Shown here: one piece after another, positions 1 to 25,977 of the stretch
How the letters are laid out: every line of letters begins with the position of its first letter
Position numbering within the stretch: the stretch's first letter is position 1
Origin: Kiritimatiellia bacterium
GTDB lineage: Bacteria; Verrucomicrobiota; Kiritimatiellia; RFP12; UBA1067
Direction of reading: 5' to 3'
Assembly (NCBI GenBank): GCA_045599445.1
Contig: JAZRWB010000011.1
Coordinates: 3,090-67,089, forward strand
DNA: 64,000 nt
Notes under the pieces: model-generated
The model's database searches: none
Told to the model about the DNA's origin: nothing
Seen by the model: the letters and a program-made list of their open reading frames with translations, nothing else
Made by a program: the position numbers and the translations under genes

Positions 1-1175
1 TTCTCAATCTGAACATGAAAAGGATGCGTTGAGAAGAAATCTGCATCGGAAACTTTATTCTGCTGATTCGACGCACGTGAAATTGTGCGCAAAAGCTCCT
101 GCTTGTCGTCTTCAAACATACCATCATGCGTAACGGTCAACTTCATGAGAACATTTATTTTTGATAAGTCCGCATGATCGCAAAATCGCGCATTCGATAT
201 GCTTGCAGTCGTTTGTCCGCCATTAATAATCTGAAATTCCTCTGCATATGCGAGATTGCCTTCCTCGTCAAATCTTACGTTTGATGCCGTCACTGAAATC
301 CCATTGTTAAACGCAAAAAACTGTTCGGGAGCCCTTAAGATCGTCTCTCTAATTCGCTTATTGACCGCACCCTTCGTAGAAAGAAATGAGCGCACATTGC
401 CCTCAAGCAATCTGGCCCCATATTTATCATAAATATCGGCAAGAACCACCCCAGGAACAATCCCCATGTAACTTGAATAACGAAACCTATTTGGGTCTTC
501 CGATTCACCGGCGGGGACACAATGCACAACCCTCGGCTTATATTCAGAAAAATCAATCTGCAAAGTTCCACGCCCCTCGTCTGCAATCGACAAACCATAG
601 ATCGATCGAATGTCATAGATCAAGAGCTCCACCGGTTTAGTTTCTATATCAGGAAACTTTGTCCGCTTTGCATTGTCAGTGACAATCCCATCTGTTAATA
701 AATACACCCTGAACTTGCGGATTGACGATTCGGTCGTTCCCATGTGGCTATTGATTATCTCGATGCAATCAAGGTAATTTGTAGCTTCTGAAGATGTCAA
801 CTTCAGCGAATTGCGGTCTTTGATAAAGTTCAGAGCCGCCTCTACATCTTGGCGAATATCGGGAAGTCCCATTCGCGCAGGTTCTTCATTGCCATCGAAT
901 TTCGTGACAAAGACATTCAGAAAACCATCTACTGACGAAAATGAATATCCATTGATGTGATAATGCTTCTTCACTCGTTGCTCATAATGATCGAAGAATG
1001 CTGGTGTATAATCATCGACAAGCTCTGACTGCTCCAGCTCCTCTGTCACACGATCTGCAAATGCCTCTTCACTTGTCTTACCGTTGACAGCCAGTTCGTT
1101 TTGAATATCAACCAGCAATGCCTCACGGTATTCAAGCGCATCTTCTTCCTGCTGTTTTTTTCCGGTAGCTGTCAT
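1..1175 (-). CDS. AIPR-family abortive-infection-type protein, N-terminal ~390 aa (3' end runs off the window)
   Basis: Absent from the ORF track because it has no stop inside the window. Hand translation of the minus strand from ATG 1175-1173 (AAGGAG 8 nt upstream) stays open to position 1. It gives ...LEGNVRSFLSTKGAVNKRIRETILRAPEQFFAFNNGISVTAS...FQIINGGQTTASI..., which are the AIPR core motifs as I know them. Confidence 0.8.
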   Translation of the reverse strand, partial: MTATGKKQQEEDALEYREALLVDIQNELAVNGKTSEEAFADRVTEELEQSELVDDYTPAFFDHYEQRVKKHYHINGYSFSSVDGFLNVFVTKFDGNEEPARMGLPDIRQDVEAALNFIKDRNSLKLTSSEATNYLDCIEIINSHMGTTESSIRKFRVYLLTDGIVTDNAKRTKFPDIETKPVELLIYDIRSIYGLSIADEGRGTLQIDFSEYKPRVVHCVPAGESEDPNRFRYSSYMGIVPGVVLADIYDKYGARLLEGNVRSFLSTKGAVNKRIRETILRAPEQFFAFNNGISVTASNVRFDEEGNLAYAEEFQIINGGQTTASISNARFCDHADLSKINVLMKLTVTHDGMFEDDKQELLRTISRASNQQNKVSDADFFSTHPFHVQIE

Positions 1176-1177
1176 AT

Positions 1178-2110
1178 TCACATCTCCTTAAATTCCTCAA
1201 TCGCCGGCAAACTAATCGAATACTGGCATGCTGTCACGGCGGTAACGAGAGCAGACCTGCGTAGACAAGGGAATTGATCCGTCACCTTGTAAATGTCTCG
1301 GCAATAGATCTGAAACCTACGTTTCTCATACTCAGGTTCATTGTCCACATACTTCGTAAGGAAGAGCTTGTTATCAAGCATCGTCCGTGCTGCGACACTC
1401 GTAGCCGCACCCCGTGTCTGATCGACAACATCTTTGAGGGAAAACGCCTCATCTTTATTTTCTGGCGCTCGATCTATATGGTAAACAAGTAGCGAACCTT
1501 CAACTTCAGAATCAAGTTGCTCTATCGATGAAATCGTGACCGTTGTCGCACTTACCTTGCAACTCTTGACTTCGGCCCAATCATCGTAGAACTCAAAATC
1601 CTTATCCATTTTAAACGGCCCAACCCATGCATCAAGTGCATCCTCAAAACCACGATTTTTCGCAAAATACTGAAGCGCTAAAAGCTCTGCCGCTAAACCC
1701 TGTTGTTCCTGAATCGACATTATCCCTGGTCTCGCCCCTTTTAGAAGTTCTTGCCATGCCGAGAATCTGGTAAGCAAATTCATCAGTGCGGCTGAGCGCG
1801 ACTCCTTGCGCGTCGCCTCAAAAAGATCATAGCAAAGCGTGTTGAAAACATCACGATGCTCTGGCGTAATTAGAGAGAATGACAAACAAGCCTTTTCTTT
1901 TTTTCTGAAGGACAGCACAAGTATCTGCGCGGTTGATGGAATCTCTGCCGCGCTAAATGTCTTGCCGATGTCTTCGATGAGCAATGTCGGACGGCCTACG
2001 CTATCCAAACCGAAATACACGGAGAGCGGAAGATCTGGGTCAACGATAAAATACCGTTGCGGAGTTTTCTCGACTGACCGAATCCTTTTGATGAATGACG
2101 TATAGTCCAT
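1178..2110 (-). CDS. PD-(D/E)XK motif protein (putative nuclease partner of Z1226/AIPR genes)
   Basis: 310-aa ORF. It abuts the Z1226 stop (2111) and sits 2 nt from the AIPR start. The C-terminal half has a D...E-V-K nuclease-like signature (DKDFEFYDDWAEVKSCK). Call is by motif and context only. Confidence 0.6.
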   Translation of the reverse strand: MDYTSFIKRIRSVEKTPQRYFIVDPDLPLSVYFGLDSVGRPTLLIEDIGKTFSAAEIPSTAQILVLSFRKKEKACLSFSLITPEHRDVFNTLCYDLFEATRKESRSAALMNLLTRFSAWQELLKGARPGIMSIQEQQGLAAELLALQYFAKNRGFEDALDAWVGPFKMDKDFEFYDDWAEVKSCKVSATTVTISSIEQLDSEVEGSLLVYHIDRAPENKDEAFSLKDVVDQTRGAATSVAARTMLDNKLFLTKYVDNEPEYEKRRFQIYCRDIYKVTDQFPCLRRSALVTAVTACQYSISLPAIEEFKEM

Positions 2111-4756
2111 TTAATCCTCCGTCTCTGCGTTCAAATAGTCTTGAAGCGAACTCTCTTCATATGCACGTCTGGTGAAATAGAACTCTTGCTCTATCTGATC
2201 GTCCTTCGATCCAGGGAAGCCAAAGCTCAAGGCAAAAAAAGAGGTGACCAGCGGATCCGCAGAATCCTTACACTTCTCACTCATCTTCACATATTGAATG
2301 ACAAGCAATGGTCGACGCCCTTCCTTCTTTGCCCTCCGCAAATATCGCTCATCTGGCGGCTCGCGATTTTCATGCCCCTTTTCACTTTGATATTCAGCAA
2401 TAACCTTACGCGCATCTGATGGGGTAAGTATGTACCGCATAGCACCACCAGACGTCACCTTCAGCTTTGTGCCACTAATCATCACCTCTCGTCCAGAACT
2501 TACAACCGCCAACTTTCGAGACGCATGGCGAATTGTTTGCCCATCTTCCATTACCGGAATAGCAACATCCCAATTGATGCCAAGATTTGAAATGTATTCG
2601 GAGATTTGCGGCACCATAAAACCGAAGCTCATCATCCCTGCCTTGAATTCGGAAAGCATATTAGATATCTCTCCATGCGGGACATCGCGAAGGAACACCA
2701 TTCTATCCCAAGTCTGCCCGTGTTCGCGTCGCACCCAATTGTTCGCTATGAATTCGCTTACCGCCTTGTCATTTGCCGTAGTCACGATTGGGTCGTTCTT
2801 GATTCGGGGCGTTTCAATGGCATGCCCGGCCAACACGATCGGGAAACTTATCCGCGTTGCCGTGCGCATCTTATTCCGGGCCGTTGGTAGCATTGCACCA
2901 GGAGCCTTGCGGATCTTGAACGCAAAATCCTTGGGCGACCCCTCCTGCTCAACTATCTGGTGGAACATCTCAGAAAGATCTTCAGAAATATCACTCGCGT
3001 AACCAAAATTATCAACCGCTACTTGCGGCATCCACACACGCACAAGGGATTGATACAAGCCGCGATATCCGCACCACCGTCCCATCTGAAGAAGCGTATC
3101 GCTCATCATCGTGTTCCTGCGGAAGTAGCTGACAACCAGTCCTTCAAGCGTCAAACCACGCGACAAAGCATTGCCACCTATGACAATATAGCGTTTCTCT
3201 GCATCTGCGTAATCAAGAGCCTTTACCGTCTTGCCGCTGTTTACAACAACGGTCTCTACAGTCTTAATCGCATCCAACAAGACAGTCTTGAGAAACGCAT
3301 TCCACGACATCCCGTCACATGGCCGACTCAAGCCATACTCGTCCCATATCTGATGTAGCCGCGCCAGTTCCGGCACTCTTTCGGTCTTCATCGGATCACC
3401 ACAATAATTTGAAACTTTGGATACAAGTCGTTTGACATAATCCTCAACGTGACTCAACAGACGATTCTGAATGGCAACAAATCGGCTCACATGAATCATC
3501 ATTGAACGATGACCTATATGATCTCCGCCCTTCCCGATTACATCCATCACACCGTTGGCAAGCAGATAATATCCAATCGCCGTTTGCAAAGACTCAGGAA
3601 GGTCCTCCGATGGGTATTCGTCCTTCTTGTGGGAGGTTGGCAACCAGAACTCTATGTCGTCGATTATCTTCAAATATGGAGAACCCGGCTCAAACAATTT
3701 GTTCGCACCAAAATAATTCGATGGCGTTGTAAGCCGATAAACGAAACTCTTCGGGAAAAGATCGTCCGCGACTACCTTATCCTCTGTATCAGGGTCAATA
3801 AACACATTGGCAAAAGGTGTTGCCGTTATTCCGACGTAAGACGAACGTGTAAACGACTTAAGTATCTTTCGGATCAGCTCATTCGTCCGCGTTGGATTCG
3901 CCTCCTCTGACAACTCTCGCGTGTTAATCGATGCATTGTCAGCCTCATCGTCAATAAACAGCAACGGCCAAGGGAGCGAAACATCTCCCTTTTCTGAAAC
4001 CGATTTTACGCCCTTCTGCAGCCACTTGTACAAATGCTGCAAGACAGTTACATTTTTCTTCACGACACACAATACTGGTACATCGTTACGAAACACATGA
4101 ACAGGATTCTCTCCCTGCTCCTTCCGAAAATCATACGTCGCCCCAGTCAACTTGACAACCTGTTTCATCGGAAGCAAGCTGATGAATTCTTTTTCAAGCC
4201 TTCCCTGCGTCTGCCGCCGTAACTTTTCAATGATACCCGCAGTAATAATGATCACACGATATCCTGCATCTGCCGCCTTATTACACAACGCAATGAAGTT
4301 CGCCGTCTTACCGGACTGAATATCGCCCATAACCAAACCACGGACATTAAAGCTTTTACTCTTGGGATTTCCAAGGTGATTCATAATGACATCCGAACTT
4401 TTATCAAGCTCGCGGATGACATTGGGGCTCCATTGCTTGTTACGTAGTTTTGTTAAATATGCGGTAAACCATTCGTTATGGTCAGGCTTAATCTTTTCGA
4501 ACCAATAAGCATCTTGCTGGCTATACTCATTGTGATTAACAATGCACTCATCCTCTGGTTTATATACACCAACAAGGGCAATAAGTTTTCGTATAATAAG
4601 TTTTCGTTCTTCCTCGCCTATCCCAGGGAACTTGCTTGTCCATTCTTCAACGCCGATATTAATTTGCTCCTCCGTTATTTCCTCGAAAGCATCTTTATGA
4701 CTAAAGACAACACAAAGTATCTCAAGAAGTTGTTGCCCCTGTTTAGAGAGAGCCAT
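2111..4756 (-). CDS. Z1226-type P-loop NTPase / SF2-helicase-like protein
   Basis: 881-aa ORF. Walker A GDIQSGKTAN, Walker B/DEAD-like LLFIDDEADNAS, ITATPFAN and LSRGLTLEGL helicase-like motifs. 14-nt overlap with the upstream GHKL ATPase gene. Confidence 0.7.
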   Translation of the reverse strand: MALSKQGQQLLEILCVVFSHKDAFEEITEEQINIGVEEWTSKFPGIGEEERKLIIRKLIALVGVYKPEDECIVNHNEYSQQDAYWFEKIKPDHNEWFTAYLTKLRNKQWSPNVIRELDKSSDVIMNHLGNPKSKSFNVRGLVMGDIQSGKTANFIALCNKAADAGYRVIIITAGIIEKLRRQTQGRLEKEFISLLPMKQVVKLTGATYDFRKEQGENPVHVFRNDVPVLCVVKKNVTVLQHLYKWLQKGVKSVSEKGDVSLPWPLLFIDDEADNASINTRELSEEANPTRTNELIRKILKSFTRSSYVGITATPFANVFIDPDTEDKVVADDLFPKSFVYRLTTPSNYFGANKLFEPGSPYLKIIDDIEFWLPTSHKKDEYPSEDLPESLQTAIGYYLLANGVMDVIGKGGDHIGHRSMMIHVSRFVAIQNRLLSHVEDYVKRLVSKVSNYCGDPMKTERVPELARLHQIWDEYGLSRPCDGMSWNAFLKTVLLDAIKTVETVVVNSGKTVKALDYADAEKRYIVIGGNALSRGLTLEGLVVSYFRRNTMMSDTLLQMGRWCGYRGLYQSLVRVWMPQVAVDNFGYASDISEDLSEMFHQIVEQEGSPKDFAFKIRKAPGAMLPTARNKMRTATRISFPIVLAGHAIETPRIKNDPIVTTANDKAVSEFIANNWVRREHGQTWDRMVFLRDVPHGEISNMLSEFKAGMMSFGFMVPQISEYISNLGINWDVAIPVMEDGQTIRHASRKLAVVSSGREVMISGTKLKVTSGGAMRYILTPSDARKVIAEYQSEKGHENREPPDERYLRRAKKEGRRPLLVIQYVKMSEKCKDSADPLVTSFFALSFGFPGSKDDQIEQEFYFTRRAYEESSLQDYLNAETED

Positions 4757-6221
4757 TTAGGATTACCTCCTCTTCTTTACGAAGTTTATCCGCATAAAAA
4801 ACAAACGGTTCGCTCTGAAGCATGGACAAAAATGCCATTCTCCTTGCCGATCCAGCTGGAATCATACAAACCAATCCTTTAAGCATATCGACCATCTCAT
4901 CGACTGACAATGGTGTCTCGTTGTCCATTCTTTGGTCACTGCTTCTGCTGTAGTAAATTACATCAACCGGAATAGTACGTTCAAACAAACGGAAAAGCTT
5001 CTCCAGTTCCACATTCGCTTCAAGCGCCGCTTTTACGACAGGATGATTTCGGTTGAGTAAAACCGATGTCACAGTCCCATCCCTTATCGTAGATTCCCAG
5101 ACTTGTGAATCATCAGTAGCGGCTTTGGTTTTCTTCCCAAACACTTCAACGCGAATTGCATTCTTACTCTGTTTGACTACAGAATCAACATACGCACGGA
5201 GGTGCGCGACAATCTGCTTTGGCGGAATCGCAACTGACTTCTTAACATCCAACGACCACTTCATGTCAACAGAATTTGGGATGTCAACTTTTACGCGGGC
5301 GAGCTTGAAAAATTCACCCTGGGCCTTAAGTCCAAACCAATGTCCGTATGTGATCAAGCGCTTATTACGATAGATGTAAAACCCCTGCGTTCTTCGGAGC
5401 GCTTTCCCAGTGCCAAGCATGTCGCGCATTTCCGATGTTAGCTCTTTGTCGTGCGGAAGCGTGAATGCCTGCAGGGTGATTCTGCTTTTCCCGTATCCAA
5501 GTGGCTGTGTCGCCTTGCACTGATGACCTTGCTTACCATTCTGCACATACTGAAGAAATGGATCTTTGGGCTTCAATACCCTTCCATTGATCCTAATTCT
5601 AATCTTGTGAATGCCTTCCTCGCCAAAGATATATCTGTGAAAGACAAGCGCAAGATGTTCACTCATCTTATACATCTCATCATCGAAAGTCAGCTCATCA
5701 TATGACCCACCAAAGTCAATTGCCTGCCAAAGAACAACCGTTCCACTTTTACGACTTTTCAAAGATTCAACGCCCGGCAAGGATTCCCACTCTGCTCTCT
5801 CAAGAACCAACAACGGCCAAACTTCATCTTTATGCTTTGCGATATAGTCAAGGTCCCACCGCCTTGCCGAAATCTCTCCGTCTTTCTTTGAAATTACCGT
5901 CATCACCTTGCATTGTGACATGGATGCGGTTTTCAACCCTAATCCATAACGACCAAGATCCTTCTCTGATCGAGCCTTCGCAGGGTCCGCAGAACCGTAT
6001 TGCATCGCGCAAGTCAACTCGTCCGCAGTCATCCCTTCCCCATCATCTATAATCGTTATGTATGTGGAAAGGGCATCTTCGTAATTAATGTCAACGTTCT
6101 TCGCATCCGCAGCAATTGAGTTATCCACCAAATCAGCAACGGCAGCCTCAAGCGAATACCCAATATGTCGAGTTGCCGCAATTAATGTATGTGCTTTAGG
6201 TGGTAACGGTAAACTTTTCAT
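4743..6221 (-). CDS. GHKL (Bergerat-fold, HATPase_c_3/MORC-like) ATPase
   Basis: 492-aa ORF. N box DLVDNSIAADA, G1 box IIDDGEGM, G2 box GRYGLGLKTAS. ATGA-type 4-nt overlap with the methyltransferase gene. Confidence 0.75.
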   Translation of the reverse strand: MKSLPLPPKAHTLIAATRHIGYSLEAAVADLVDNSIAADAKNVDINYEDALSTYITIIDDGEGMTADELTCAMQYGSADPAKARSEKDLGRYGLGLKTASMSQCKVMTVISKKDGEISARRWDLDYIAKHKDEVWPLLVLERAEWESLPGVESLKSRKSGTVVLWQAIDFGGSYDELTFDDEMYKMSEHLALVFHRYIFGEEGIHKIRIRINGRVLKPKDPFLQYVQNGKQGHQCKATQPLGYGKSRITLQAFTLPHDKELTSEMRDMLGTGKALRRTQGFYIYRNKRLITYGHWFGLKAQGEFFKLARVKVDIPNSVDMKWSLDVKKSVAIPPKQIVAHLRAYVDSVVKQSKNAIRVEVFGKKTKAATDDSQVWESTIRDGTVTSVLLNRNHPVVKAALEANVELEKLFRLFERTIPVDVIYYSRSSDQRMDNETPLSVDEMVDMLKGLVCMIPAGSARRMAFLSMLQSEPFVFYADKLRKEEEVILNGSL

Positions 6222-7540
6222 TGCTCTTTATTTGGCTTATAAATTAATTTCGGATCTGGCTTAACACTTTTGTAATCTATTTTGGCAAAGGTCTTTAATA
6301 TTGCCATAAATATTTTCCGTGCACCCACAGTAGGCACTGCCATGCCTATTTGTTTTCGTATTTGCTCGGGACCACCACAAAAAACAAAGTCTTGAGGAAA
6401 TGTTTGCAAGGCGGCTCGTTCCTCATTTGTTAGCGCGCGATGCTCAGAATAATGATAAATATGAGTGCCACCACCACCACTTCCTGTCAATGTATATGCA
6501 GGACGCCTTGGATCTAGCCGTCGATAAATATGACTCATCCTTGCTTTTTTACAATGTAGCCTTACTTCTTCAATCTTATTTCTAATTGCAGTAATTCTAT
6601 CGTGTAAATTCTTAATTGGAAATTGTGCCTCAATGTCTTTTTTGTACCAAGGTATTTTCTTTAAATAATCGTCCAATACATTATCTGGATACAGTTCTTT
6701 ATTTACAAGTTCATCTAATTTCCAGGCATTTTCTCCAGGAGGTGTAAATTTCAATCTCCAAACCACAGTGTCTGATTGTCTTGTCTTCTCACTTCCCCAT
6801 GTTGTTTCATTTTTTACCTTGTCTAATGCCTTTTTACATGTCACATATTGACGAGCGCATTTAGGGCCATACTCTGGAGCGGGAGGCCTAAATTCAAGTT
6901 TCCGCTTTTTTGCAATATCTGCCCTAATCCCCACGATTACATATCTATGTCGTGATTGAGGAACACCATATTCTTCGAATTTATAAAGATGCGCAACAAC
7001 ATTGTAACCTTTACCAGAGTTAGCAAGATCTTGCAATATACACTTAAATTGATTCCCCGAATCATGTCCCATTATTCCACTCACATTCTCAGCGATAAAC
7101 CATTCCGGATCGTACGTTTCTATGACTTTAATACCTGTTTTGTATAAATCTCCAAATTTCTTGTCATTAACACCACGACGTTCTCCGACTTGACTAAAAC
7201 TATTACAAGGAAATCCAAAAGCTAACGCATTTATACGCTTTGATGCGTCAAGGCATTTATTCACAAAATGCCATGCGTCATCTTGAATGCCATTCTTTTC
7301 GCCAAGATTTTTCTTAAAAGTCTGGATCGCATATGGTGAAACATCCACTCCCCATGCATGTTCTAATCTATACTCCTTTCTGTCACGCCCACAAATTCTA
7401 ACATCTTGTGCAGATGCTATAGCCATACCACCTGGGCCACAAAACAGCTCACCCATTCTAAACAACTTCTGTGCCATATCGTTTTTAGCGGGTTCACCTT
7501 GCCGAGTGGTATTCGGAGGCTCTGGAGGCCTAGGGACCAC
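6218..7540 (-). CDS. DNA (cytosine-5)-methyltransferase
   Basis: C5-MTase motifs: I FCGPGGM, IV GFPCNSFS, VI ENV, VIII QSRHR, and a C-terminal QIGMAVP. The ORF-track start at 7540 is a GTG that adds a Pro-rich 21-aa extension. ATG at 7477 (MAQKLFRMGELFCGPGG) is the more likely start. Confidence 0.85.
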   Translation of the reverse strand: MVPRPPEPPNTTRQGEPAKNDMAQKLFRMGELFCGPGGMAIASAQDVRICGRDRKEYRLEHAWGVDVSPYAIQTFKKNLGEKNGIQDDAWHFVNKCLDASKRINALAFGFPCNSFSQVGERRGVNDKKFGDLYKTGIKVIETYDPEWFIAENVSGIMGHDSGNQFKCILQDLANSGKGYNVVAHLYKFEEYGVPQSRHRYVIVGIRADIAKKRKLEFRPPAPEYGPKCARQYVTCKKALDKVKNETTWGSEKTRQSDTVVWRLKFTPPGENAWKLDELVNKELYPDNVLDDYLKKIPWYKKDIEAQFPIKNLHDRITAIRNKIEEVRLHCKKARMSHIYRRLDPRRPAYTLTGSGGGGTHIYHYSEHRALTNEERAALQTFPQDFVFCGGPEQIRKQIGMAVPTVGARKIFMAILKTFAKIDYKSVKPDPKLIYKPNKEQ

Positions 7541-7806: not shown

Positions 7807-8151
7807 TTACAGCCCCTTGAACTCGGCCGTAATCGGCTCGACCAACCGACGCAATTCATCAAAGTCCTTGGTTATGGCCTGCCATACCTCATTGTAATCG
7901 ACATTCATGTATTCGTGGGCAACAATATTCCGCATGGCACGAATTTCTTGCCATGGAATTTCTGGATGTCTGGCCTTCAACTCGGCCGAGACCATATGTG
8001 ATGCCTCGCCAACAATGAGGATATAGCGCTCGGCGGCAACCCGCTTATCTTTGCTATCAAGAAACTGCTCTTTTGTCAGCCCCGCAATGGATTCCTTTGC
8101 ATCGGCTATAGCGGTCAGCATGTGCGTAATTCTATCGGCATCCCTGATCAT
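7807..8151 (-). CDS. hepT: HepT-like (DUF86) ribonuclease toxin
   Basis: 114 aa. RX4HXY motif present as RNIVAHEY. 4-nt overlap with the upstream nucleotidyltransferase gene. Confidence 0.85.
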   Translation of the reverse strand: MIRDADRITHMLTAIADAKESIAGLTKEQFLDSKDKRVAAERYILIVGEASHMVSAELKARHPEIPWQEIRAMRNIVAHEYMNVDYNEVWQAITKDFDELRRLVEPITAEFKGL

Positions 8152-8450
8152 ACCGGCACCATATCCCGCTTGACTTCGGCTGAAAAGTTGTACATCGGAT
8201 AGTCACTTACGCATCTATGCGAAATCAGATCAACATCGCGATTGAGCAGACCTGACAATTCGCGTTGCATTCTGACATGGGAGAGCATGGTCGCATCATC
8301 TCCAAATTGAACGAGAAAATCCGCATCGCTGTCGGGACGCTCTTCCTTCCGGGCAACAGAACCGAAAACCCAAAGCTTTTCCGCCTTGTGATTCTTCGCG
8401 ATCGCGTAAATTTCGTCCCGCTTCGCATGTATCTCGTCAAGCATGCACAT
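8148..8450 (-). CDS. mntA: MntA-like minimal nucleotidyltransferase antitoxin
   Basis: 100 aa. GS...R...(x)SDADFLV nucleotidyltransferase motif (FGSVARKEERPDSDADFLV). Canonical mntA-hepT order and overlap. Confidence 0.85.
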   Translation of the reverse strand: MCMLDEIHAKRDEIYAIAKNHKAEKLWVFGSVARKEERPDSDADFLVQFGDDATMLSHVRMQRELSGLLNRDVDLISHRCVSDYPMYNFSAEVKRDMVPV

Positions 8451-8457
8451 CGTCGAT

Positions 8458-8487
8458 ATTCTACCACACCGCCCGCGCTTGCGTCAA
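8458..8487 (-). promoter_or_regulatory. Sigma70-like promoter of mntA-hepT, leaderless-type geometry
   Basis: The minus strand reads TTGACG-N18-(TGg)TAGAAT-atcgacg-ATG. Only 7 nt lie between the -10 hexamer and the start codon, and there is no Shine-Dalgarno. Confidence 0.5.
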
Positions 8488-8493
8488 CCACTC

Positions 8494-8528
8494 CCATAAA
8501 AACAAAGGGCTGGGATTAACCCAGCCCC
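8494..8528 (-). terminator. Rho-independent terminator (minus strand)
   Basis: GGGCTGGG / CCCAGCCC 8-bp stem (8507-8514 / 8520-8527) with a 5-nt loop. On the minus strand it is followed by TTTGTTTTTATGG. Confidence 0.7.
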
Positions 8529-8589: not shown

Positions 8590-8840
8590 TAACTTTCCAG
8601 CAGTTTCCATTACGCGTATACTATATATACGCGTGGAAAAATGGAAAAACGGAAAAATTCAATTTTCCAGGGCGTTTTTCCACGTGGAAAATTAATGTTT
8701 TTAAAGTTTTTTAGTCTTTTTGTTAATTTTCCACCGAAAAGCGACTGTAAAAATAGATAACTGCGTGGAAAATTAAAATTCACCTCAGTTATATTTACTT
8801 ATCGATTTTCCACGTCTTAACTGCGTGGAAAATTAAAATG
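8590..8840. repeat. Iteron-like repeat field (GTGGAAAA/TTTTCCAC core), putative replication origin or regulator-binding array
   Basis: Perfect 21-nt direct repeat AACTGCGTGGAAAATTAAAAT at 8759-8779 and 8819-8839. 8-mer core at 8633, 8676/8684 (the 16-bp palindrome TTTTCCACGTGGAAAA, 8676-8691), 8727, 8765, 8806 and 8825. Phased GGAAAAA x3 at 8635-8657. ACGCGTATA/TATACGCGT inverted repeat at about 8612-8634. Confidence 0.6.
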
Positions 8841-8858
8841 CTGTATATTAATTACAAG

Positions 8859-10379
8859 TTATACGGGTGCTTCTATTGGGACAAACATTCTTCCACTGCT
8901 ACTAGTTTTGATTATCTTAAGCCCATATACTTCAGGGTTTTTATCTACCATCTTGTAGGCGTTATCACCTATTACTCGTGTAAATGCTTTTCGCGCGTAC
9001 TCTCTCGCATCACTTGCCGACCTTGGAACGATTTTCAAGTTTTCGGCGAGTTGCCTGGCGGCGTCTTCGACGGTAATCGTAGTTGACTTCTCGCCACTAC
9101 CTTCGGGCGGCTCGACTTCGCGCCAGAAAATCATGCCTTCGGAGTGGGCGATGTAGCGGTGGGGCTTGGTCGACTTGTCGTCGATTACCGGCCAGCCGAG
9201 ACGATTGCCGCGCTTGGCGGCGATAAGATCGAAGACGCCCTTTTTATCCTTAACTCGCATTATAACGAGCATCGAGCGTATCCAGTTCGTAAGTTCCGCT
9301 CCGCCCGCGCCCAGATATTCCGCATAGCGGTCGCTACCAAAAGTCGAACGATCGTTGTTCGTCGGCGGCTTGTTGGTGTGGTGGACGATGAGCAAGGCGC
9401 ATTTCGTCTTCTCGTCCCTGATTACGGGGTCGAGCCCTTCGCGCAAAAACTCCCTTAACTCCGAGTTGTTCGCGATATCGCATCCGCAAACGCCTTGCAG
9501 CGGATTGATTACGATCAGGTCGAAGTGGTGCTTGAGCTGCCAGCGCCGGAGGAATTCGACGAAGTCCTTTCCGGTTTCCGCCTTGAAGTCGTTGGGGATT
9601 GCGAGATTCTTCTCGGCCGCGGCGAGATCCAAGTCGGTCCAGCCATAAACCTCCTTGTATCCGCGATGCATATTCGCGCGAAACTCCCGCATTTCCTCGA
9701 GGTCGTCCTCGGTTTCGAGAAAACCGATTTTGAGCGGGCGAAGCGGCTTTAGGCCGAACGCCTCCCGCCCGAGCGCCCAAGCGTAGGCGAGCTGAATCGA
9801 GACGACCGACTTACCCGTGCCTGAAGTGGAAACGAGCACGTTCGCCTGGCCCTTGCGCATCCAGCCGTGTCCGAAAAGCGCGTCGGGATTCTCCTCGTCG
9901 GGCGTGGGCGCGCCGAATTCGCCGAAATTGATGATGCCCGTAGCGTCGGTCGCCTTATCCGAGCGTATCGATTTTCCCGCGCGTTCCAACCCCTTCTCTA
10001 TCAGCGCCAAATAATCCTCGGCCCTCGGCGTCGAAGCTTTAAGCGCCTTCGCCTTGTCCACGAAATCGTCAACAATGCGCTTTCGCCCGCTTTCGGCGAG
10101 ATCGGATATGCGTCGATCGATCATTATCGGGTCGGTGGTGGCGTGGCCAAGCGCCTTTTCGACGAACTTGGCGTCGAGCTTCCGCATTACCAAATCGCGG
10201 AGAATTTCGGTATCGTTCGATTCTTCTTTCGACAGCGCCTCGAAAGCGGCGCGAGCGTAGTTATCCTGAAAATGCTCCGCCTTAAGATTGTAGTCGGCGA
10301 CGAATTTGCGAAGCCGCTCGAGATTGGCGCCGTCGCTCAGGAAGTCGCCGATAATGCCGAGCTCGATTTCACTCGTCAT
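8859..10379 (-). CDS. DnaB-N-like + RecA-fold (AAA_25/RepA-like) helicase/ATPase of a mobile replicon
   Basis: 506 aa. The N-terminus resembles the DnaB N-terminal domain (ELGIIGDFLSDGANL...AEHFQDNYARAAFEAL). Walker A VSTSGTGKSVVS; Walker B-like FDLIVINPLQ; LLIVHHTNK. Confidence 0.6.
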   Translation of the reverse strand: MTSEIELGIIGDFLSDGANLERLRKFVADYNLKAEHFQDNYARAAFEALSKEESNDTEILRDLVMRKLDAKFVEKALGHATTDPIMIDRRISDLAESGRKRIVDDFVDKAKALKASTPRAEDYLALIEKGLERAGKSIRSDKATDATGIINFGEFGAPTPDEENPDALFGHGWMRKGQANVLVSTSGTGKSVVSIQLAYAWALGREAFGLKPLRPLKIGFLETEDDLEEMREFRANMHRGYKEVYGWTDLDLAAAEKNLAIPNDFKAETGKDFVEFLRRWQLKHHFDLIVINPLQGVCGCDIANNSELREFLREGLDPVIRDEKTKCALLIVHHTNKPPTNNDRSTFGSDRYAEYLGAGGAELTNWIRSMLVIMRVKDKKGVFDLIAAKRGNRLGWPVIDDKSTKPHRYIAHSEGMIFWREVEPPEGSGEKSTTITVEDAARQLAENLKIVPRSASDAREYARKAFTRVIGDNAYKMVDKNPEVYGLKIIKTSSSGRMFVPIEAPV

Positions 10380-11205: not shown

Positions 11206-12180
11206 CTAAGTTCGCGAGGCAAAATATCCACCATTCTTTGGCGCCCCACGAAATTCTATAGCGCCAATACCCTTCAATTCCCTGACATAACGCTCAACCG
11301 TCTGAATACTTTTGCCGATAAGCAAGGCAAGCTCATTAGCCCGCTTTCCCGGATTCTTGCGAATGACGGCAAGGAGGATTTTTACTCCCTCATTTACTCC
11401 CTCATCATTCCCAGAATTTACTCCCTCATCGTCAATCGCAATCGACTGCCCCATCAGCCGAAGAAGTTCCTTCTGCGTCTCACATACCCGATCGCGGATA
11501 AATCGCACGAACGGAGTGATCTGTCGTGAGGCCTTCTCAAGAGTGGTAATATACTCATGTCGGCAGATCGGCGGAATAATTGCAAGCGTCCATCCGGCCC
11601 GCAGTAGCATCAAATTCATCAATAGACGCGCCACTCGTCCATTGCCATCGACAAACGGATGGATATAAACGAACTTCTGATGCACTAACGCGGCGAACTC
11701 AACGGGATGCATCCTACCCTCGTGTGCGCTCATCCACTTTACGAACGCGGACATCAACCCGGGCACCTTTTCCGGGGCCGGCAAGACACGTCGCGAACCG
11801 GATATAAACACCCTAACCTTGCGCCACGCGCCAGCATTGTCCTTGTCAATTTGTCCGTAAAACAGGCGATGAATCTTGAGGATATTTTCCTCGCTCACCG
11901 GCTCGTTTTTCGTCAGCTTGTAAAGAAAGTCATACGCCTTGGCATGGCCCGTCGCCTCGTAAACGTCCTTAAGCGGTTTGCCGCCAATAGTAAGCCCATC
12001 CTCAATGACGACTTTCGTTTCGCTCTCGGTCAAAGAATTACCTTCGATGGCGTTACTTGAATAGGTAAGTCCTACGCGATAATAATCACGCAACGATTTC
12101 AACATTTCCCTTGGAAATGGTCGTAATGCGGCTATCCGCGCCGCATAAGCATCACAAGAGCTAAATTCGCCTTTTTTCAC
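11206..12180 (-). CDS. fic: Fic-family (AMPylase-type) protein with C-terminal winged-helix domain
   Basis: 324 aa. Fic motif HPFVDGNGRVARLLMN. An N-terminal inhibitory-helix-type motif SNAIEGN fits (S/T)xxxE(G/N). C-terminal HTH-like GKRANELALLIGKSIQTVERYVRELK. GTG start. Confidence 0.85.
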   Translation of the reverse strand: MKKGEFSSCDAYAARIAALRPFPREMLKSLRDYYRVGLTYSSNAIEGNSLTESETKVVIEDGLTIGGKPLKDVYEATGHAKAYDFLYKLTKNEPVSEENILKIHRLFYGQIDKDNAGAWRKVRVFISGSRRVLPAPEKVPGLMSAFVKWMSAHEGRMHPVEFAALVHQKFVYIHPFVDGNGRVARLLMNLMLLRAGWTLAIIPPICRHEYITTLEKASRQITPFVRFIRDRVCETQKELLRLMGQSIAIDDEGVNSGNDEGVNEGVKILLAVIRKNPGKRANELALLIGKSIQTVERYVRELKGIGAIEFRGAPKNGGYFASRT

Positions 12181-12691: not shown

Positions 12692-13855
12692 CTAACGACT
12701 CAGTAATTCCGCAACTTGCCCAAAATTAACAAATTGCCCCCCACCCCTAAGTGGCCAATTCTCGCCTGCGTAAATAACGTCGCAAGTCTCAACCTCTTTC
12801 GACAACCGCCGCAGCTTTTCCATATTCCGACCAAACGAATCATCAGGCGTCATAGCCCCCTTGATTTCATAAAGATGCAATTTGCGATTTGCCTCCACCA
12901 CCAAATCGACCTCAACGCCGCCATTATCCCTAAAATAAAAGAAATCCGCCGTCTTCCGGTAATTGAACTTGGCCTTAAATAACTCCATAATCACCATGTT
13001 TTCAAAAAGCCCGCCCAAAAGCGGATCCCGCGATACTTGCGTTTCATTGGTGATCCCAAGAAGATACGAAGCAAGCCCGACATCCGTAAAATATACTTTT
13101 GGCGACTTTACCAAACGCTTGCCGAAGTTGCGATAATAAGGTTGAAGATGAAAAACCACATAACTCGCCTCCAACACCGACATCCATCGCTTTAGCGTCT
13201 TGGCATCCACCCCAATATCGTTCGCCAGGGATTGAAAATTGACAACTTGCCCGACACGCCCCGCCAAAAGGCGAACAAAAGTTTCAAAAGCCGTTTGATT
13301 CTCAACTTGCACGAGTTGCCGGACATCTCGCTCGACATAGGTACGATAATATTCCTCGTTGGCGGTCGTTGCATCAAGTCCATCCGCATAAATCCGCGGA
13401 AGAAAACCTCGATAAATGAGTTCGTCTCGACCGAGGTCGATCTTCGCTCGATGCAATTCGGAAATGGAAAATGGCAACAAAGTAATGAGCGCAGTGCGCC
13501 CGGCAAGCGATTGCGAAACCTTTTCCTTGAGCAATGGTTGGTGCGAGCCGGTGAGTACGTACTCGCCCTTGCGCCCAGATTCATCGACTTTCACCTGTAT
13601 CCAGCTCAACAATTCCGGCACTCGCTGAACTTCGTCGATTATCAACGGCGCTCCATAGTGTCTAAAAAAAGCCTCTGGATCGTTCTGCGCCAATCGGCGA
13701 TCCTTCGGATTTTCAAGATTCACATACGCATATTTCGGGAAAACACTACGCACCAAAGTAGTTTTTCCGCTTTGACGCGGCCCGAACACCGTAACTACGG
13801 GATGCGTTTTCACCGCCTTGATTAAAACTTTCGTAATATCGCGCTTAATCATCAT
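12692..13855 (-). CDS. AAA-family ATPase (AAA_14 + DUF4143 type)
   Basis: 387 aa. Walker A GPRQSGKTTL and Walker B-like LIIDEVQ. Length and C-terminal region are typical of the DUF4143-containing ATPases often found in accessory DNA. Confidence 0.75.
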   Translation of the reverse strand: MMIKRDITKVLIKAVKTHPVVTVFGPRQSGKTTLVRSVFPKYAYVNLENPKDRRLAQNDPEAFFRHYGAPLIIDEVQRVPELLSWIQVKVDESGRKGEYVLTGSHQPLLKEKVSQSLAGRTALITLLPFSISELHRAKIDLGRDELIYRGFLPRIYADGLDATTANEEYYRTYVERDVRQLVQVENQTAFETFVRLLAGRVGQVVNFQSLANDIGVDAKTLKRWMSVLEASYVVFHLQPYYRNFGKRLVKSPKVYFTDVGLASYLLGITNETQVSRDPLLGGLFENMVIMELFKAKFNYRKTADFFYFRDNGGVEVDLVVEANRKLHLYEIKGAMTPDDSFGRNMEKLRRLSKEVETCDVIYAGENWPLRGGGQFVNFGQVAELLSR

Positions 13856-13921: not shown

Positions 13922-14121
13922 TCGCTTCGGGATGAAGAGTAGTTTGGGAGACATTTCGCAGCGACGGTATAAAAGACGGAATGACCCGATTTCGACGCGT
14001 CGCCCGATTGCGAAGCAAGCGGTAAAAGACCGCGAAATCGATGTCATACCCGGCTTTTATATCGGAAGTTTGAAAAACTTAGCGAGGACAGTCGCCCAAA
14101 CTACTCTTCATCCCGAAGCGA
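13922..14121. repeat. 200-bp imperfect palindrome with perfect 27-bp terminal inverted repeats
   Basis: TCGCTTCGGGATGAAGAGTAGTTTGGG at 13922-13948, with its exact reverse complement at 14095-14121. The 146-bp interior is itself imperfectly self-complementary (TATAAAAG..ATGAC..GATTTCG blocks on both arms). The right arm encodes the last codons of the tatD-like gene. Confidence 0.85.
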
Positions 14122-14723
14122 TCGATATTGGCGGTAACGATTTTATCGAGCTCGGCGAGAGAGATGCCGCGGACGAAGGCGAGAAACTCGGCTACTTCGT
14201 GGATCGAAGGCGAGGTAGCGGTGCGATCGGTTTCGACAAGAAGCATATCAGACGGTATCTTCTTCGCGAGCTCTCGATAGTTCACAGCATGGTCGTTCAA
14301 GATCGCCGGCCCGACGGAGATAAAGCCGTTTAACTTCGCTATCTCCGGTATAAGCCCATCCGAGCGCGAAAACCCGTGAAAGAGCATCGCTGGTATCCTT
14401 CCTGCATAAGGCCGGACCGCGCGCACCACTTCGCCCCAACACTTCGCACCATGCAAAATCACCGGTCGCCCGAACTCGGCGGCAAGCGCAAGCTGCGAAA
14501 GAAATACTTCGCGCATCTTTTCGGAGATATCGCGCGAGCGGAGGCGATCAAGTCCAATTTCGCCGACGAGCAGCTGCGGGTTCTTTTGAAGCGCCTCGCG
14601 CAAGAACTCGACGCCTTCGCACGTTTCCGCATCCCACGGATGAACGCCCATCGCATCGCGCCCAATCAGTATTTCCCTTAAGCCCGCCTCGCCAGCGGAA
14701 ACGTGGCAATGCGCGTCGATCAT
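14079..14723 (-). CDS. TatD-family metal-dependent hydrolase (short paralogue)
   Basis: 214 aa. N-terminal MIDAHCHV HxH motif; GEIGLD; FHGFS. The C-terminal ...DRFGMKSSLGDCPR is encoded inside the inverted repeat. Confidence 0.7.
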   Translation of the reverse strand: MIDAHCHVSAGEAGLREILIGRDAMGVHPWDAETCEGVEFLREALQKNPQLLVGEIGLDRLRSRDISEKMREVFLSQLALAAEFGRPVILHGAKCWGEVVRAVRPYAGRIPAMLFHGFSRSDGLIPEIAKLNGFISVGPAILNDHAVNYRELAKKIPSDMLLVETDRTATSPSIHEVAEFLAFVRGISLAELDKIVTANIDRFGMKSSLGDCPR

Positions 14724-16927: not shown

Positions 16928-17428
16928 TTAGATTATATCATTTTCATGCGAGGCGCGGCGTGCGCGAAAGAAGTTCTGCAAAATCGCCTTCGACTCCACT
17001 TCCATCACGCCCTCGACGATTGTCGGGTGGTGGTTGATGCCGGGATGACGAAAGATATCGAAGACCGTGCCGCCGCCGCGCTTCGGATCGGAGAGCCCCC
17101 AAACGACGCTCTTCACTCGCGCGAGCACAATCGCGCCCGCGCACATCGGACAAGGTTCCTTGGTAACGTAAAGCCGCGCCTTGTTAAGCCGCCAATTGCC
17201 GGTCGCCTGAAACGCTTGGGTAAGCGCGAGCATTTCGGCGTGGGCGGTCGCGTCGACGAGCCCTTCCGCCTGATTGTGGGCGCGGCCCAAAATCCGCACC
17301 GCCGAAGGCGAGACGTCCTCCGATTCCGGCTCTTCGATAATTACGCACCCCGTCGGCACTTCGCCGTCCGCCGCCGCCTTCTCGGCTTCACGAAGCGCCA
17401 TACCCATAAAGTGTTCGTCGTAAGTCAC
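16928..17428 (-). CDS. tadA: tRNA adenosine(34) deaminase
   Basis: 166 aa. HAEMLAL and PCPMCAGA zinc-binding motifs. Confidence 0.9.
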   Translation of the reverse strand: MTYDEHFMGMALREAEKAAADGEVPTGCVIIEEPESEDVSPSAVRILGRAHNQAEGLVDATAHAEMLALTQAFQATGNWRLNKARLYVTKEPCPMCAGAIVLARVKSVVWGLSDPKRGGGTVFDIFRHPGINHHPTIVEGVMEVESKAILQNFFRARRASHENDII

Positions 17429-18135
17429 AATCCGAGCACCCTTTCCGCATTAATGAAAGTCGTCTCCGCGAATTCCTCCATCGGAATTCCCTTAAGTTCC
17501 GCGAGGAAGCGACATGTGTGAACGAGAAACGCGGGTTCGTTCGCTTCGCCGCGCTTCGGCACCGGCGCGAGATAAGGCGAGTCGGTTTCGATTAGAATTC
17601 GATCCATCGGAATTACGCGCGCGACTTCGCGCACATTCTCCGCCGCCTTAAATGTCACTATTCCCGAAATCGAAACGTAAAAGCCGAGATCGAGAAATTG
17701 CTTCGCCGCTTCCACGGTTCCCGTGTAGGAGTGGATGATGCCGCGCGAAGGAACTTTTCTTAAAAGCGCAATCGTATCCTCGTCGGCTTCGCGAGTGTGG
17801 ATAACGACCGGCAAGTCGCGAGCGCGCGCGAGTTCCAGCTCTTCGTAAAATAGCGCGAGCTGCTTTTCGCGCGTTTCGGGCGAGTAGTGATAATCAAGTC
17901 CGATTTCGCCAATCGCCGTCGCTTCCCCGAGCGCGGGAAGTTCCTTGTCGATTTGATCGCGGTCGTAGCCGAGCGCGTGAATCGGCGAAGCGAGCGCGGC
18001 CGAAGCGTTAAGCGCCTCCGAGCCGCCGACCGCCATTAGCTTTTCGACCCCCGCCGCCCGAGCGCGGGCGAGCGTCGCGTCGATTACCGCGCGCTCGCAA
18101 GTCTCGAAGTGGCAATGGGTATCGAATAGCCGCAT
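17425..18135 (-). CDS. tatD: TatD-family hydrolase
   Basis: 236 aa. MRLFDTHCHF, GEIGLDYHY, VVIHTREA, IIHSYTG, ETDSPYLAP. Confidence 0.85.
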   Translation of the reverse strand: MRLFDTHCHFETCERAVIDATLARARAAGVEKLMAVGGSEALNASAALASPIHALGYDRDQIDKELPALGEATAIGEIGLDYHYSPETREKQLALFYEELELARARDLPVVIHTREADEDTIALLRKVPSRGIIHSYTGTVEAAKQFLDLGFYVSISGIVTFKAAENVREVARVIPMDRILIETDSPYLAPVPKRGEANEPAFLVHTCRFLAELKGIPMEEFAETTFINAERVLGL

Positions 18136-24238: not shown

Positions 24239-24456
24239 ACAGTCTCCTTCGTCGAATGTTGTAGATTGTATCAAATAATATTATTCTTATAAATAGAAAG
24301 AATTATTATTATTAGGTTTGTTGATAATTAAAGTAACTTGATTTAAGTCCTCTACTTCAAGGGTATTTAAGAGTTTTGATTGTTGGTAAATTATATTCAT
24401 TTATTTGATTGAAGTTAGTAGCAAGGTACTTGTAATCACTTGTAGAGAGATTATCA
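24239..24456. other. Very AT-rich dnaA-dnaN intergenic region, candidate DNA-unwinding element / origin component
   Basis: 218 bp of AT-rich sequence with runs such as AATAATATTATTCTTATAAATAGAAAGAATTATTATTATT inside an otherwise roughly 60 % GC block. One TGTTGATAA (1 mismatch to TGTGGATAA) at 24319-24327. Confidence 0.4.
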
Positions 24457-25878: not shown

Positions 25879-25887
25879 TTGGACAAT

Positions 25888-25896
25888 AATATACCA
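25888..25896 (-). promoter_or_regulatory. Extended -10 (TGgTATATT) 9 nt upstream of the dnaA ATG
   Basis: The minus strand reads gtttaTGgTATATT-attgtccaa-ATG. No Shine-Dalgarno. Confidence 0.4.
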
Positions 25897-25977
25897 TAAA
25901 CTTTGACGTGGCGATACAGAGAAGAAATTGACCGTTGCTAACTACTTATTTACAAAACGTGTAGATAAGTATATAAG

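Follow-up and report, generated by a model that had tools for sequence, protein, structure and literature searches.

A bacterial immune operon that joins a C5 cytosine methylase to an Mza-like four-gene core

Relation to described defence systems

The described system closest to the locus examined here is mzaABCDE, and the 2020 study behind it is reportedly that of Gao et al. In a single preprint, E. coli mzaABCDE is reported to protect 10^3-10^4-fold against both T4(C) and T4(hmC) and far less against wild-type (ghmC) T4; the growth of cultures infected at an MOI of 5 is not arrested, and purified E. coli MzaD cuts DNA in vitro. These last two results favour a direct attack on DNA over abortive infection. 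MzaA is described as a sigma factor, and the system has no methylase (PMC9523054). Miller et al. (2022; Nat Commun 13:5731, PMC9523054) described a widespread 'type II' that is only distantly similar to mzaBCDE and whose core consists of a Z1 protein, a PD-(D/E)XK DUF protein and a cytosine methylase; theirs is a computational description only and supplies no function or mechanism. Earlier, Iyer, Abhiman and Aravind (2008; PMC2292703) had linked MORC-type GHKL genes to helicases, DNA methylases and nucleases and had predicted methylase/MORC/helicase/AIPR operons with mostly cytosine methylases, a general prediction spanning many architectures, of which the present one has had no experimental follow-up. 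CglI and NgoAVII combine a C5 methylase with an SF2 (DEAD) and Z1 ATPase; ATP hydrolysis by their Z1-domain N-proteins is triggered once the partner R-protein encounters unmethylated GCSGC, and translocation first with cleavage afterwards is the course that the authors envisage (Zaremba et al. 2014, PMC4267653).

The operon described here resembles each of these in part. Within the window, that is, the whole stretch of 64,000 nucleotides that was analysed, five abutting minus-strand genes read from the sequence occupy positions 1-7540 and encode, in order, a C5 cytosine methylase, a MORC/MutL-like GHKL ATPase, an SF2+Z1 ATPase, a DUF4420 PD-(D/E)XK nuclease and an AIPR protein. Genes 2-5 encode homologues of MzaB (GHKL), MzaC (Z1), MzaD (DUF4420) and MzaE (AIPR), arranged as in mzaABCDE and again with overlaps between genes, whereas gene 1, in the place of the sigma-factor-like MzaA, encodes a Dcm-type C5 methylase, and the four shared proteins score at about one third of the NCBIfam equivalog cut-offs (NF041932-NF041935) or less. 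MzaA was not found in PADLOC comparisons of the methylase and the two genes upstream of it, nor in NCBIfam comparisons of the methylase. With the Miller 'type II' the operon shares the core as well as the AIPR protein and MORC-type ATPase, but it lacks a transcriptional regulator. From CglI/NgoAVII, with which it has the C5 methylase and the SF2 (DEAD) and Z1 ATPase in common, it differs in its nuclease, a DUF4420 PD-(D/E)XK protein without a recognised reader domain where those systems use an R-protein whose PLD and B3 domains cut and read DNA sequence (no PLD or B3 match was obtained in any of the five window proteins), and in possessing a GHKL ATPase and an AIPR protein, both of which CglI lacks. 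Lactococcal AbiU is a stand-alone Abi locus; it has the AIPR core domain in common with the window protein, which instead ends an invariant four-gene core and carries an additional AIPR_N domain and a long C-terminal region.

The initial annotation of this DNA had implied that the arrangement was novel. That view cannot be kept, since the architecture is already present in Miller et al. 2022 (PMC9523054) and foreshadowed in Iyer et al. 2008 (PMC2292703), and genes 2-5 map to the phage-tested mzaABCDE through the MzaB, C, D and E models of PADLOC and NCBIfam. Its statement that no mechanistic dissection exists still applies: a 2025 review files mzaABCDE under 'others', among the systems of one 2020 study, and the Z1, DUF4420 and AIPR proteins have no relatives in the PDB.

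Gene products and genomic setting

The methylase gene (6218..7540) has a maximal open reading frame of 440 aa from a GTG, and alignment with orthologues suggests that its true start is the ATG at 7477 or 7456. The product matches Pfam DNA_methylase (2.9e-56), NCBIfam TIGR00675 dcm (155 bits, cut-off 100.65) and PADLOC MTase_II PDLC03378 (1.7e-91), together with the PADLOC DrmMII and DruM models, and contains the motifs FxGxGG, PC(N), ENV, QxRxR and G(M)AVP; at least 85% of linked methylases have PCQ and GNAVP in place of its PCN and GMAVP. Its stop codon shares an ATGA at 6218-6221 with the start of the GHKL gene (4743..6221), which encodes a 492-aa MzaB homologue matching Pfam HATPase_c_3 (7.2e-39), PADLOC MzaB (3.4e-78) and NCBIfam MzaB (318 bits; equivalog cut-off 850). 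In the PDB its sequence matches the ATPase domains at the N-termini of MutL and of MORC2/3/4, the MORC proteins ranking best, and the family-conserved N34, D59-G61-G63, G90-G95, T161 and K328 are intact. We rejected an identity as a GHKL restriction enzyme of the BbrUII/HgiDII kind because NF050001 is matched over the N-terminal GHKL region only, at 42 bits against a cut-off of 550, and not at full length.

The GHKL gene overlaps the next gene by 14 nt (4743-4756), and a GGAGG precedes the ATG of the latter. This third gene (2111..4756) encodes an 881-aa SF2 (DEAD-type) ATPase with a Z1 domain, an MzaC homologue that is related to the CglI/NgoAVII N-proteins and matches Pfam Z1 (8.2e-60), PADLOC MzaC (4.2e-94) and NCBIfam MzaC (402 bits; equivalog cut-off 1500). 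Residues 98-582 also match PADLOC Helicase_II ('Type II helicase domain protein', 4.5e-36), a model that probably represents this N-protein family. Walker A, DEAD and motif VI are invariant, the invariant positions in alignment A1 being G144-T151 (Walker A), D269-D273 (Walker B, DEAD), T311-A312-T313 and Q557/R560/G563. The TAA of the Z1 gene is followed without a gap, at 2111/2110, by the ATG of the DUF4420 gene (1178..2110), whose 310-aa product, the MzaD homologue, matches Pfam DUF4420 (1.1e-53), PADLOC MzaD (3.5e-17) and NCBIfam MzaD (91 bits; equivalog cut-off 420) and retains the family-conserved E142, D171 and E180-x-K182.

Two nucleotides (1176-1177) separate this gene from that of the AIPR protein (1..1175), the MzaE homologue, which runs off the window edge. 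The window holds the N-terminal 391 of about 714 aa, comprising AIPR_N and the N-terminal half of the AIPR core, with about 323 aa lying outside it; the full-length orthologue at the related locus L086 has 714 aa and is 94.6% identical across the 391 aa. Matches were obtained to Pfam AIPR (7.2e-49) and AIPR_N (1.5e-22), to PADLOC MzaE (7.9e-46) and, over residues 254-391, to PADLOC AbiU (3.7e-22); against the NCBIfam MzaE cut-off of 1050, the truncated protein scores 178 bits and the full-length orthologue about 298. Conserved polar residues of the family (L086 numbering) include E258, N260, R262, N290, N291, G292, N318, G319, Q321, T322, T323, D379, H384, H387 and E391, a site that is probably catalytic or nucleotide-binding. 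Two AIPR models have no significant fold neighbour in the PDB, which is a new observation, and no toxin-like fold was recognised in them.

Much of the initial annotation was borne out. Direct reading verified the five open reading frames at their coordinates and all four junctions, every motif quoted was found in the translations, and the five family calls are each backed by Pfam matches far above gathering scores. The reported AT-richness corresponds to a GC content of 0.38-0.49 for the operon against 0.55-0.61 for the chromosome beyond about 14 kb, and the neighbouring toxin-antitoxin genes are a HepT/MNT pair identified by Pfam at 7807-8450. The island also holds a SoFic-like Fic protein, like HepT/MNT a toxin-type module. 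Alignments with their families indicate that all enzymes of the operon have intact catalytic residues. Together with the operon structure, the domain calls uphold the proposed multi-component defence system, and the five-gene set is a genuine bacterial immune operon. As part of our best explanation, it probably resides in a horizontally acquired defence island adjoining the replication-origin region of what is probably a Kiritimatiellia chromosome.

Conservation of the core and exchange of the methylase

We scanned a collection holding one genome per species for relatives of the Z1 protein, which yielded at least 517 confirmed relatives, and kept 80 loci from other species and many phyla. The order GHKL-Z1-DUF4420-AIPR is complete in 75 of the 80 and is broken only by contig ends or frameshifts. 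A C5 methylase lies within 3 kb, on either side, in 71 of 72 assessable loci (median gap 46 nt), in agreement with the predicted co-occurrence of the five genes, and is absent from one locus with both flanks available; its position and strand vary. Enterobacterial members of the methylase-linked clade likewise fall below the NCBIfam Mza equivalog cut-offs. This clade is a sister group of mzaABCDE in which the methylase is almost obligatory. The methylases of close relatives are orthologous and 64-75% identical, even though the gene stands first in some operons and last in others; orthologues of the window methylase in related operons are 64-71% identical to it. Mirror-tree correlations, which were computed at high divergence and are suggestive only, gave rho values of 0.27-0.48 between methylase and core proteins and 0.35-0.79 between core proteins, the strongest pair being the C-terminal half of the GHKL protein and AIPR_N (0.79).

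A different picture emerges at loci L086-L089. Their core proteins are 87% (GHKL), 93.5% (Z1), 95.8% (DUF4420) and 94.6% (AIPR) identical to those of the window, whereas their methylase is only 40% identical and is accompanied by genes for an HTH protein and a FokI-like nuclease. At the DNA level, homology between the window and these loci sets in at position 6204 of the window, some 17 nt into the GHKL gene, and identity then forms a mosaic, with 67-88% over the GHKL gene and the Z1 N-terminus followed by 93-98%. At the protein level, the N-terminal 112 aa of the Z1 protein are 65% identical to those of L086 and the remainder 96-98%; the first ~112 aa of this protein are thus hypervariable, a new observation. 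Near-identical cores beside a different methylase and a FokI-like nuclease indicate, as judged from these loci, that the methylase is an exchangeable cassette, which is also new here. The exchange of the methylase next to a near-identical core suggests that specificity probably comes from the methylase or from fast-evolving methylase-proximal parts (GHKL, Z1 N-terminus) and not from the conserved core.

Proposed mechanism and alternative readings

We favour, as on balance probable, the reading that the operon is an anti-phage system of the Mza family with an associated methylase and acts as a methylation-gated, ATP-driven DNA restriction complex. By analogy with the described systems, the C5 methylase, translated first and translationally coupled to the next gene, would mark host DNA at its own recognition sites; on unmethylated incoming DNA, the GHKL ATPase, as an ATP-driven DNA clamp or switch, and the SF2+Z1 ATPase would assemble and consume ATP, and the DUF4420 PD-(D/E)XK nuclease would cut the foreign DNA. 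The AIPR protein would be an obligate fourth core subunit and may pair with the C-terminal half of the GHKL protein. Co-occurrence with the core and translational coupling are the two lines of evidence suggesting that the methylase may protect self DNA from a cognate nuclease. GHKL N-terminal domains are found, by weak matches, in restriction enzymes of the BbrUII/HgiDII family too, which fits the analogy. Counting against the favoured reading are the unusual PCN and GMAVP motifs of the methylase and the outcome of a search of the core proteins, in which no DNA-sequence-reading domain was identified. The phage-tested mzaABCDE works without a methylase, and therefore the core may sense something besides methylation.

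That same absence of a methylase from mzaABCDE would fit two independent units, with a solitary methylase, or one from another restriction-modification system, standing beside a methylase-independent Mza-like system whose core would sense invaders in the manner of mzaABCDE and would not read methylation. The variable position and strand of the methylase and the loose coupling of its distances to those of the core are in keeping with this, and the methylase, HTH and FokI-like genes of L086-L089 could form a self-contained type IIS-like system, in which case the FokI-like enzyme next to it, and not the Mza-like core, could be the partner of that methylase. Yet a C5 methylase close to the core in nearly all assessable loci across many phyla, the overlap of the window methylase stop with the GHKL start, and the orthology and co-inheritance of the methylases in window-type relatives argue against it, as does L086, where the FokI-like gene ends in a stop codon that overlaps the start of the GHKL gene and hence places that gene and the core in one operon. 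We regard such independence as unlikely. Abortive infection, in which the ATPases would sense a phage cue and set free a toxin, the AIPR protein and/or the nuclease, to kill the infected cell or halt its growth, the methylase being a mere safety catch or addiction module, we judge improbable to the same degree. The AbiU match of the AIPR core, the account of AIPR/AbiU1 in the literature as an Abi family linked to R-M systems (PMC3506569) and the HepT/MNT and Fic modules of the island speak for it; the AIPR protein, however, always occurs beside two ATPases and a nuclease in the invariant core of four genes, its models lack a recognised toxin-like fold, and E. coli mzaABCDE is reported to cause no growth arrest and its MzaD to cut DNA. 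These last findings also tell against the initial annotation's 'Abi-type effector', a label that came from the family name only, and the place of the AIPR protein as last gene of the core makes it improbable as a stand-alone suicide effector. Non-degradative exclusion as in BREX or DISARM, where the methylase would be a structural sensing subunit and replication would be blocked with the DNA left uncut, is very unlikely: the multi-gene methylase and ATPase architecture, the DrmMII and DruM matches and an exchangeable methylase cassette, expected if the methylase gives recognition, are compatible with it, but the PD-(D/E)XK triad is conserved, MzaD is nuclease-active in vitro, and the signature proteins of BREX and DISARM have no homologues here according to PADLOC.

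Such arrangements are widespread and already known from computation. We raise, tentatively and with considerable doubt, the idea that the methylase-linked Mza clade is a distinct ATP-dependent R-M class with a conserved engine and a swappable specificity cassette. The engine could comprise the Z1 motor, the DUF4420 nuclease and the AIPR protein, whose fold has no PDB neighbour, and the cassette could comprise the methylase, either alone or accompanied by an additional nuclease, together with the rapidly evolving GHKL protein and the hypervariable N-terminus of the Z1 protein. If this were true, target recognition would come in trans from the methylase or from the state in which its sites are, exchange of the methylase alone could re-target the same engine, and the AIPR protein would have an enzymatic activity that is new and is linked to the GHKL clamp.

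The operon and its genomic surroundings

Direct reading of the sequence and its gene junctions bore out the five minus-strand ORFs of the initial annotation, coordinates included, which together occupy positions 1-7540 and encode a C5 methylase (6218-7540), a GHKL ATPase (4743-6221), a Z1 protein (2111-4756), a DUF4420 protein (1178-2110) and an AIPR protein (1-1175). An ATGA at 6218-6221 combines the GHKL start codon with the methylase stop codon; the last 14 nt of the GHKL gene are also the first of the Z1 gene, whose ATG comes after a GGAGG; the DUF4420 ATG follows the Z1 TAA without a gap, and 2 nt separate the DUF4420 and AIPR genes. Every motif quoted in support of the original family calls is present, and HMM searches agree with those calls: all five proteins score far over threshold, matching Pfam DNA_methylase (2.9e-56), HATPase_c_3 (7.2e-39), Z1 (8.2e-60), DUF4420 (1.1e-53), and AIPR (7.2e-49) together with AIPR_N (1.5e-22). 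Because of its alignment with orthologues, the methylase likely starts at an ATG at 7477 or 7456 and not at the GTG at 7540. The AIPR gene extends past the window edge and, since orthologues are 712-714 aa long (714 aa in L086, a related locus on a gut metagenomic contig), about 323 aa of the protein lie outside the window.

The operon resides in an island of low GC content, some 14 kb long, and is, as first noted, AT-richer than the chromosome (GC 0.38-0.49 versus 0.55-0.61 past ~14 kb). In the 266 nt that separate the methylase from the next gene upstream, a sigma-70 consensus scan turned up no convincing promoter; the closest pairing of terminator and promoter is at ~8458-8528, upstream of the MNT gene of a HepT/MNT pair (7807-8450; PADLOC PDC-S09), and co-transcription of the operon with HepT/MNT is therefore possible. 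Further along lie genes for an AAA_25 RepA/DnaB-like ATPase (8859-10379, minus strand), a SoFic-like Fic+HTH protein (11206-12180; SoFic match 6e-36) and an AAA_14/DUF4143 ATPase (12692-13855; PADLOC PDC-S01, 4.6e-100). Just 3' of the AAA_25 gene sits a repeat cluster at 8632-8832 that contains all six window copies of TTTTCCACG/CGTGGAAAA, with 0.9 expected by chance, and a 22-nt direct repeat, TAACTGCGTGGAAAATTAAAAT, occurs twice, at 8758 and 8818. These repeats look like iterons from the replication origin of a plasmid-like element that became integrated. Near the island end, at the GC jump at ~14 kb, is a TatD-like ORF missing its N-terminus (14079-14723; profile positions 58-251 matched), and a full TatD gene is found 3 kb past it (17425-18135); the pair may mark where the island ends, or a duplication that came with an insertion. 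The clustering of dnaN, dnaA and mnmG at 23141-27714 puts the island some 10 kb away from the chromosomal replication-origin region. The MnmG protein is 74% identical to that of a MAG labelled as an uncultured Kiritimatiellia bacterium, its one named match, and the host is probably such a bacterium. Beyond this region, nine large plus-strand ORFs at 30346-57282 encode proteins of 2564, 516 (sulfatase), 1314, 452 (weak HipA_C), 704 (subtilase S8), 518, 1666, 501 and 911 aa; a Pfam scan of the first five returned no match for the 2564-aa and 1314-aa proteins. Rfam and tRNA scans of the whole window gave no matches.

Relation to Mza

PADLOC assigned genes 2-5 to MzaB (3.4e-78), MzaC (4.2e-94), MzaD (3.5e-17) and MzaE (7.9e-46), and matched gene 1 to methylase models alone. 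The best NCBIfam matches of genes 2-5 are likewise the 'MZA anti-phage system' equivalog models, but their bit scores fall well under the respective cut-offs (318/850, 402/1500, 91/420 and 178/1050), and a full-length AIPR orthologue scores 298, still under 1050. The phage-tested mzaABCDE system comprises five genes, the first of which encodes a sigma-factor-like protein (PMC9523054), whereas the first gene of the window operon encodes a methylase. From computational analysis, Miller et al. 2022 had put forward the same architecture as that of the window operon as a putative 'type II' system consisting of a cytosine methylase, a MORC ATPase, a Z1 protein, a PD-(D/E)XK DUF protein and AIPR, reported to be ~20% identical to mzaBCDE (PMC9523054), and Iyer et al. 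2008 predicted R-M-like operons in which MORC and helicase genes are joined by those for a cytosine methylase and AIPR (PMC2292703). The operon is a methylase-associated Mza-like system and not a new system. Its initial interpretation as a candidate multi-component defence system was right in kind; its novelty was overestimated, because the system belongs to a named and previously described family (PADLOC/NCBIfam Mza, Miller et al. 2022).

The literature that we searched contained no mechanistic study of Mza, and a December 2025 review places mzaABCDE under 'others'. A search for authentic mzaABCDE returned enterobacterial AIPR matches that all belong to the methylase-linked clade and score under the cut-offs. 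Among these relatives, Citrobacter loci L090 and L091 have the same gene content plus an HNH gene and adjoin an integrase and a type I R-M system; when the Citrobacter locus was used in a DNA search of E. coli genomes, the neighbouring HNH gene was the only part that matched.

Conservation of the core and exchange of the methylase

Relatives of the Z1 protein fall into at least 7,900 clusters, and a one-genome-per-species scan confirmed at least 517, from which 80 loci spanning many phyla were kept. ORFs were called in 85 loci and searched with iterated profiles, with counts referring to the 80 species-representative loci. In 75 of the 80 the core is complete and its order, GHKL-Z1-DUF4420-AIPR, does not vary, and 71 of these 75 have a C5 methylase no more than 3 kb away (median distance 46 nt), located upstream of the core in 31 and downstream in 40. 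The methylase is on the opposite strand in 15 loci, and only one locus among the 80 is methylase-less with both flanks available. Among close relatives of the window operon, the methylase comes first in L003, as in the window, and last in L001, L002 and L004, and these methylases are orthologous (64-75% identity) despite the switch. The proposed five-gene set thus recurs elsewhere, with a variable methylase position, which marks it as a genuine, widespread system. Much as in R-M systems, the methylase partner is near-obligate but not tied to one position. Relatives are also found on 39 plasmids, 6 phage records and 39 IMG/VR viral contigs. A Schlafen-group-3-like helicase gene (PF09848; PADLOC PDC-S41, 2e-197) was repeatedly seen after the system, at 11946-14084 in L003 and 8989-11364 in L004, and also in L009 and L010.

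Cores near-identical to that of the window (GHKL 87%, Z1 93.5%, DUF4420 95.8% and AIPR 94.6% identical) occur on four metagenomic contigs of pig and poultry gut origin (L086-L089), within a prophage-like element with large serine recombinase, DUF3799, AAA_24, DUF669 and RusA genes. Upstream of their core is a module that encodes an HTH_26 protein, a C5 methylase of 566 aa and a protein with a FokI cleavage domain (2387-5893 in L086; also in L087 and L089), in which the methylase is 40% identical to that of the window and has an additional 210-aa N-terminal region that gave no Pfam match. In L086 the FokI-like gene belongs to the same operon as the core, its stop codon lying across the start of GHKL, and DNA homology between the window and L086-type loci begins ~17 nt into the GHKL gene, at window position 6204. 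From there, DNA identity is a mosaic of 67-88% over GHKL and the first ~110 Z1 codons, 93-98% over the remainder of Z1 and 85-90% thereafter. At the protein level, Z1 residues 1-112 (window 4421-4756), a hypervariable segment with no Pfam match, share 62-65% identity with their counterparts in L086, L003 and L004 alike, and Z1 beyond residue 112 is 96-98% identical between the window and L086. Mirror-tree analysis of 73 loci gave rho values of 0.27-0.48 for methylase versus core and 0.35-0.79 for core versus core, the strongest pair being the GHKL C-terminal half and AIPR_N (0.79); no core domain co-varied prominently with the methylase target-recognition region (best rho 0.48). We read the methylase as an exchangeable cassette, beside which GHKL and the Z1 N-terminus appear to evolve fast and the motor, nuclease and AIPR to be conserved, a pattern that is suggestive as a pointer to the seat of specificity. 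The prophage also seems to contain a defence hotspot, with CTD7, MC3 and LmuB_C (ABC-3C/Lamassu-like) and YhcG nuclease genes just downstream of AIPR (L086 13136-14885, L088 6448-9421 and L089 11313-13548).

Catalytic features and proposed mechanism

When the window proteins were checked against positions conserved across each family, GHKL retained N34, D59-G61-G63, G90-G95, T161 and K328; the Z1 protein retained Walker A (G144-T151), a Walker B DEAD (D269-D273), T311-A312-T313 and Q557/R560/G563; and DUF4420 retained E142, D171 and E180-x-K182. The methylase keeps FxGxGG, PC, ENV and QxRxR, with a PCN and GMAVP variant, common to the window and L086 methylases, in place of the PCQ and GNAVP found in at least 85% of linked methylases. 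Conserved polar residues are densely set in AIPR (EGNVR, NNG, NGGQTT, D..H.P.H...E), a pattern suggestive of a site for catalysis or nucleotide binding. The GHKL domain resembles the N-terminal domains of MORC2/3/4 and MutL in a PDB sequence search, and three of the four core proteins (Z1, DUF4420 and AIPR) have no sequence relatives in PDB, a profile search of PDB sequences with AIPR included. Pfam scans of the Z1 N- and C-termini, the GHKL C-terminal half and the DUF4420 N-terminus gave no matches. Foldseek found no significant PDB fold neighbour for models of a full-length 676-aa AIPR relative (pLDDT 83; best E 0.22) or of the window core fragment (pLDDT 80; best E 0.6). A ParB/Srx (DGQHR/DUF262-like) NTPase assignment suspected for the AIPR core (FNNGIS...INGGQTT) gained no support from these searches, and Pfam returns AIPR alone. 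Weak restriction-endonuclease-fold matches (McrC, E 0.22; AF1548, probability 0.77; Can2) are taken to lie in the N-terminal domain, where the window protein lacks the consensus acidic residues.

Of the readings considered, a methylation-gated, ATP-dependent DNA restriction complex has the best support. In such a complex the methylase would mark self DNA, unmarked DNA would be the target of a GHKL clamp and a Z1 motor, DUF4420 would make the cut and AIPR would be an essential accessory. Outside support by analogy comes from E. coli mzaABCDE for nuclease activity and non-abortive protection: according to a preprint, purified MzaD cleaves DNA, and the system protects 10^3-10^4-fold against T4(C) and T4(hmC), with far weaker protection against wild-type (ghmC) T4. 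Abortive infection via AIPR is a less likely account; the same preprint reports no growth arrest at high MOI. Two independent units lying side by side are also less likely, given a five-gene set that recurs as one system, and so is BREX-like exclusion, against which the MzaD cleavage counts. For the restriction complex, outside support for the ATPase behaviour comes from the characterised relatives of the Z1-type ATPase, the N-proteins of CglI and NgoAVII: an encounter of the R-protein with unmethylated GCSGC triggers their ATP hydrolysis, and translocation followed by cleavage was proposed (PMC4267653). The remainder of the mechanism we infer.

We suggest that the locus be annotated as a methylase-associated Mza-like system. 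What is of interest still is the mechanism of Mza and the natural methylase-cassette swap documented here. The methylase would give this clade, which is widespread (at least 517 confirmed relatives) and is also found on plasmids and prophages, an explicit self mark that is absent from the methylase-less E. coli/Salmonella system, and the natural swap, in which cores of 94-96% identity are paired with 40%-identical methylases, offers a direct handle on the seat of target specificity.
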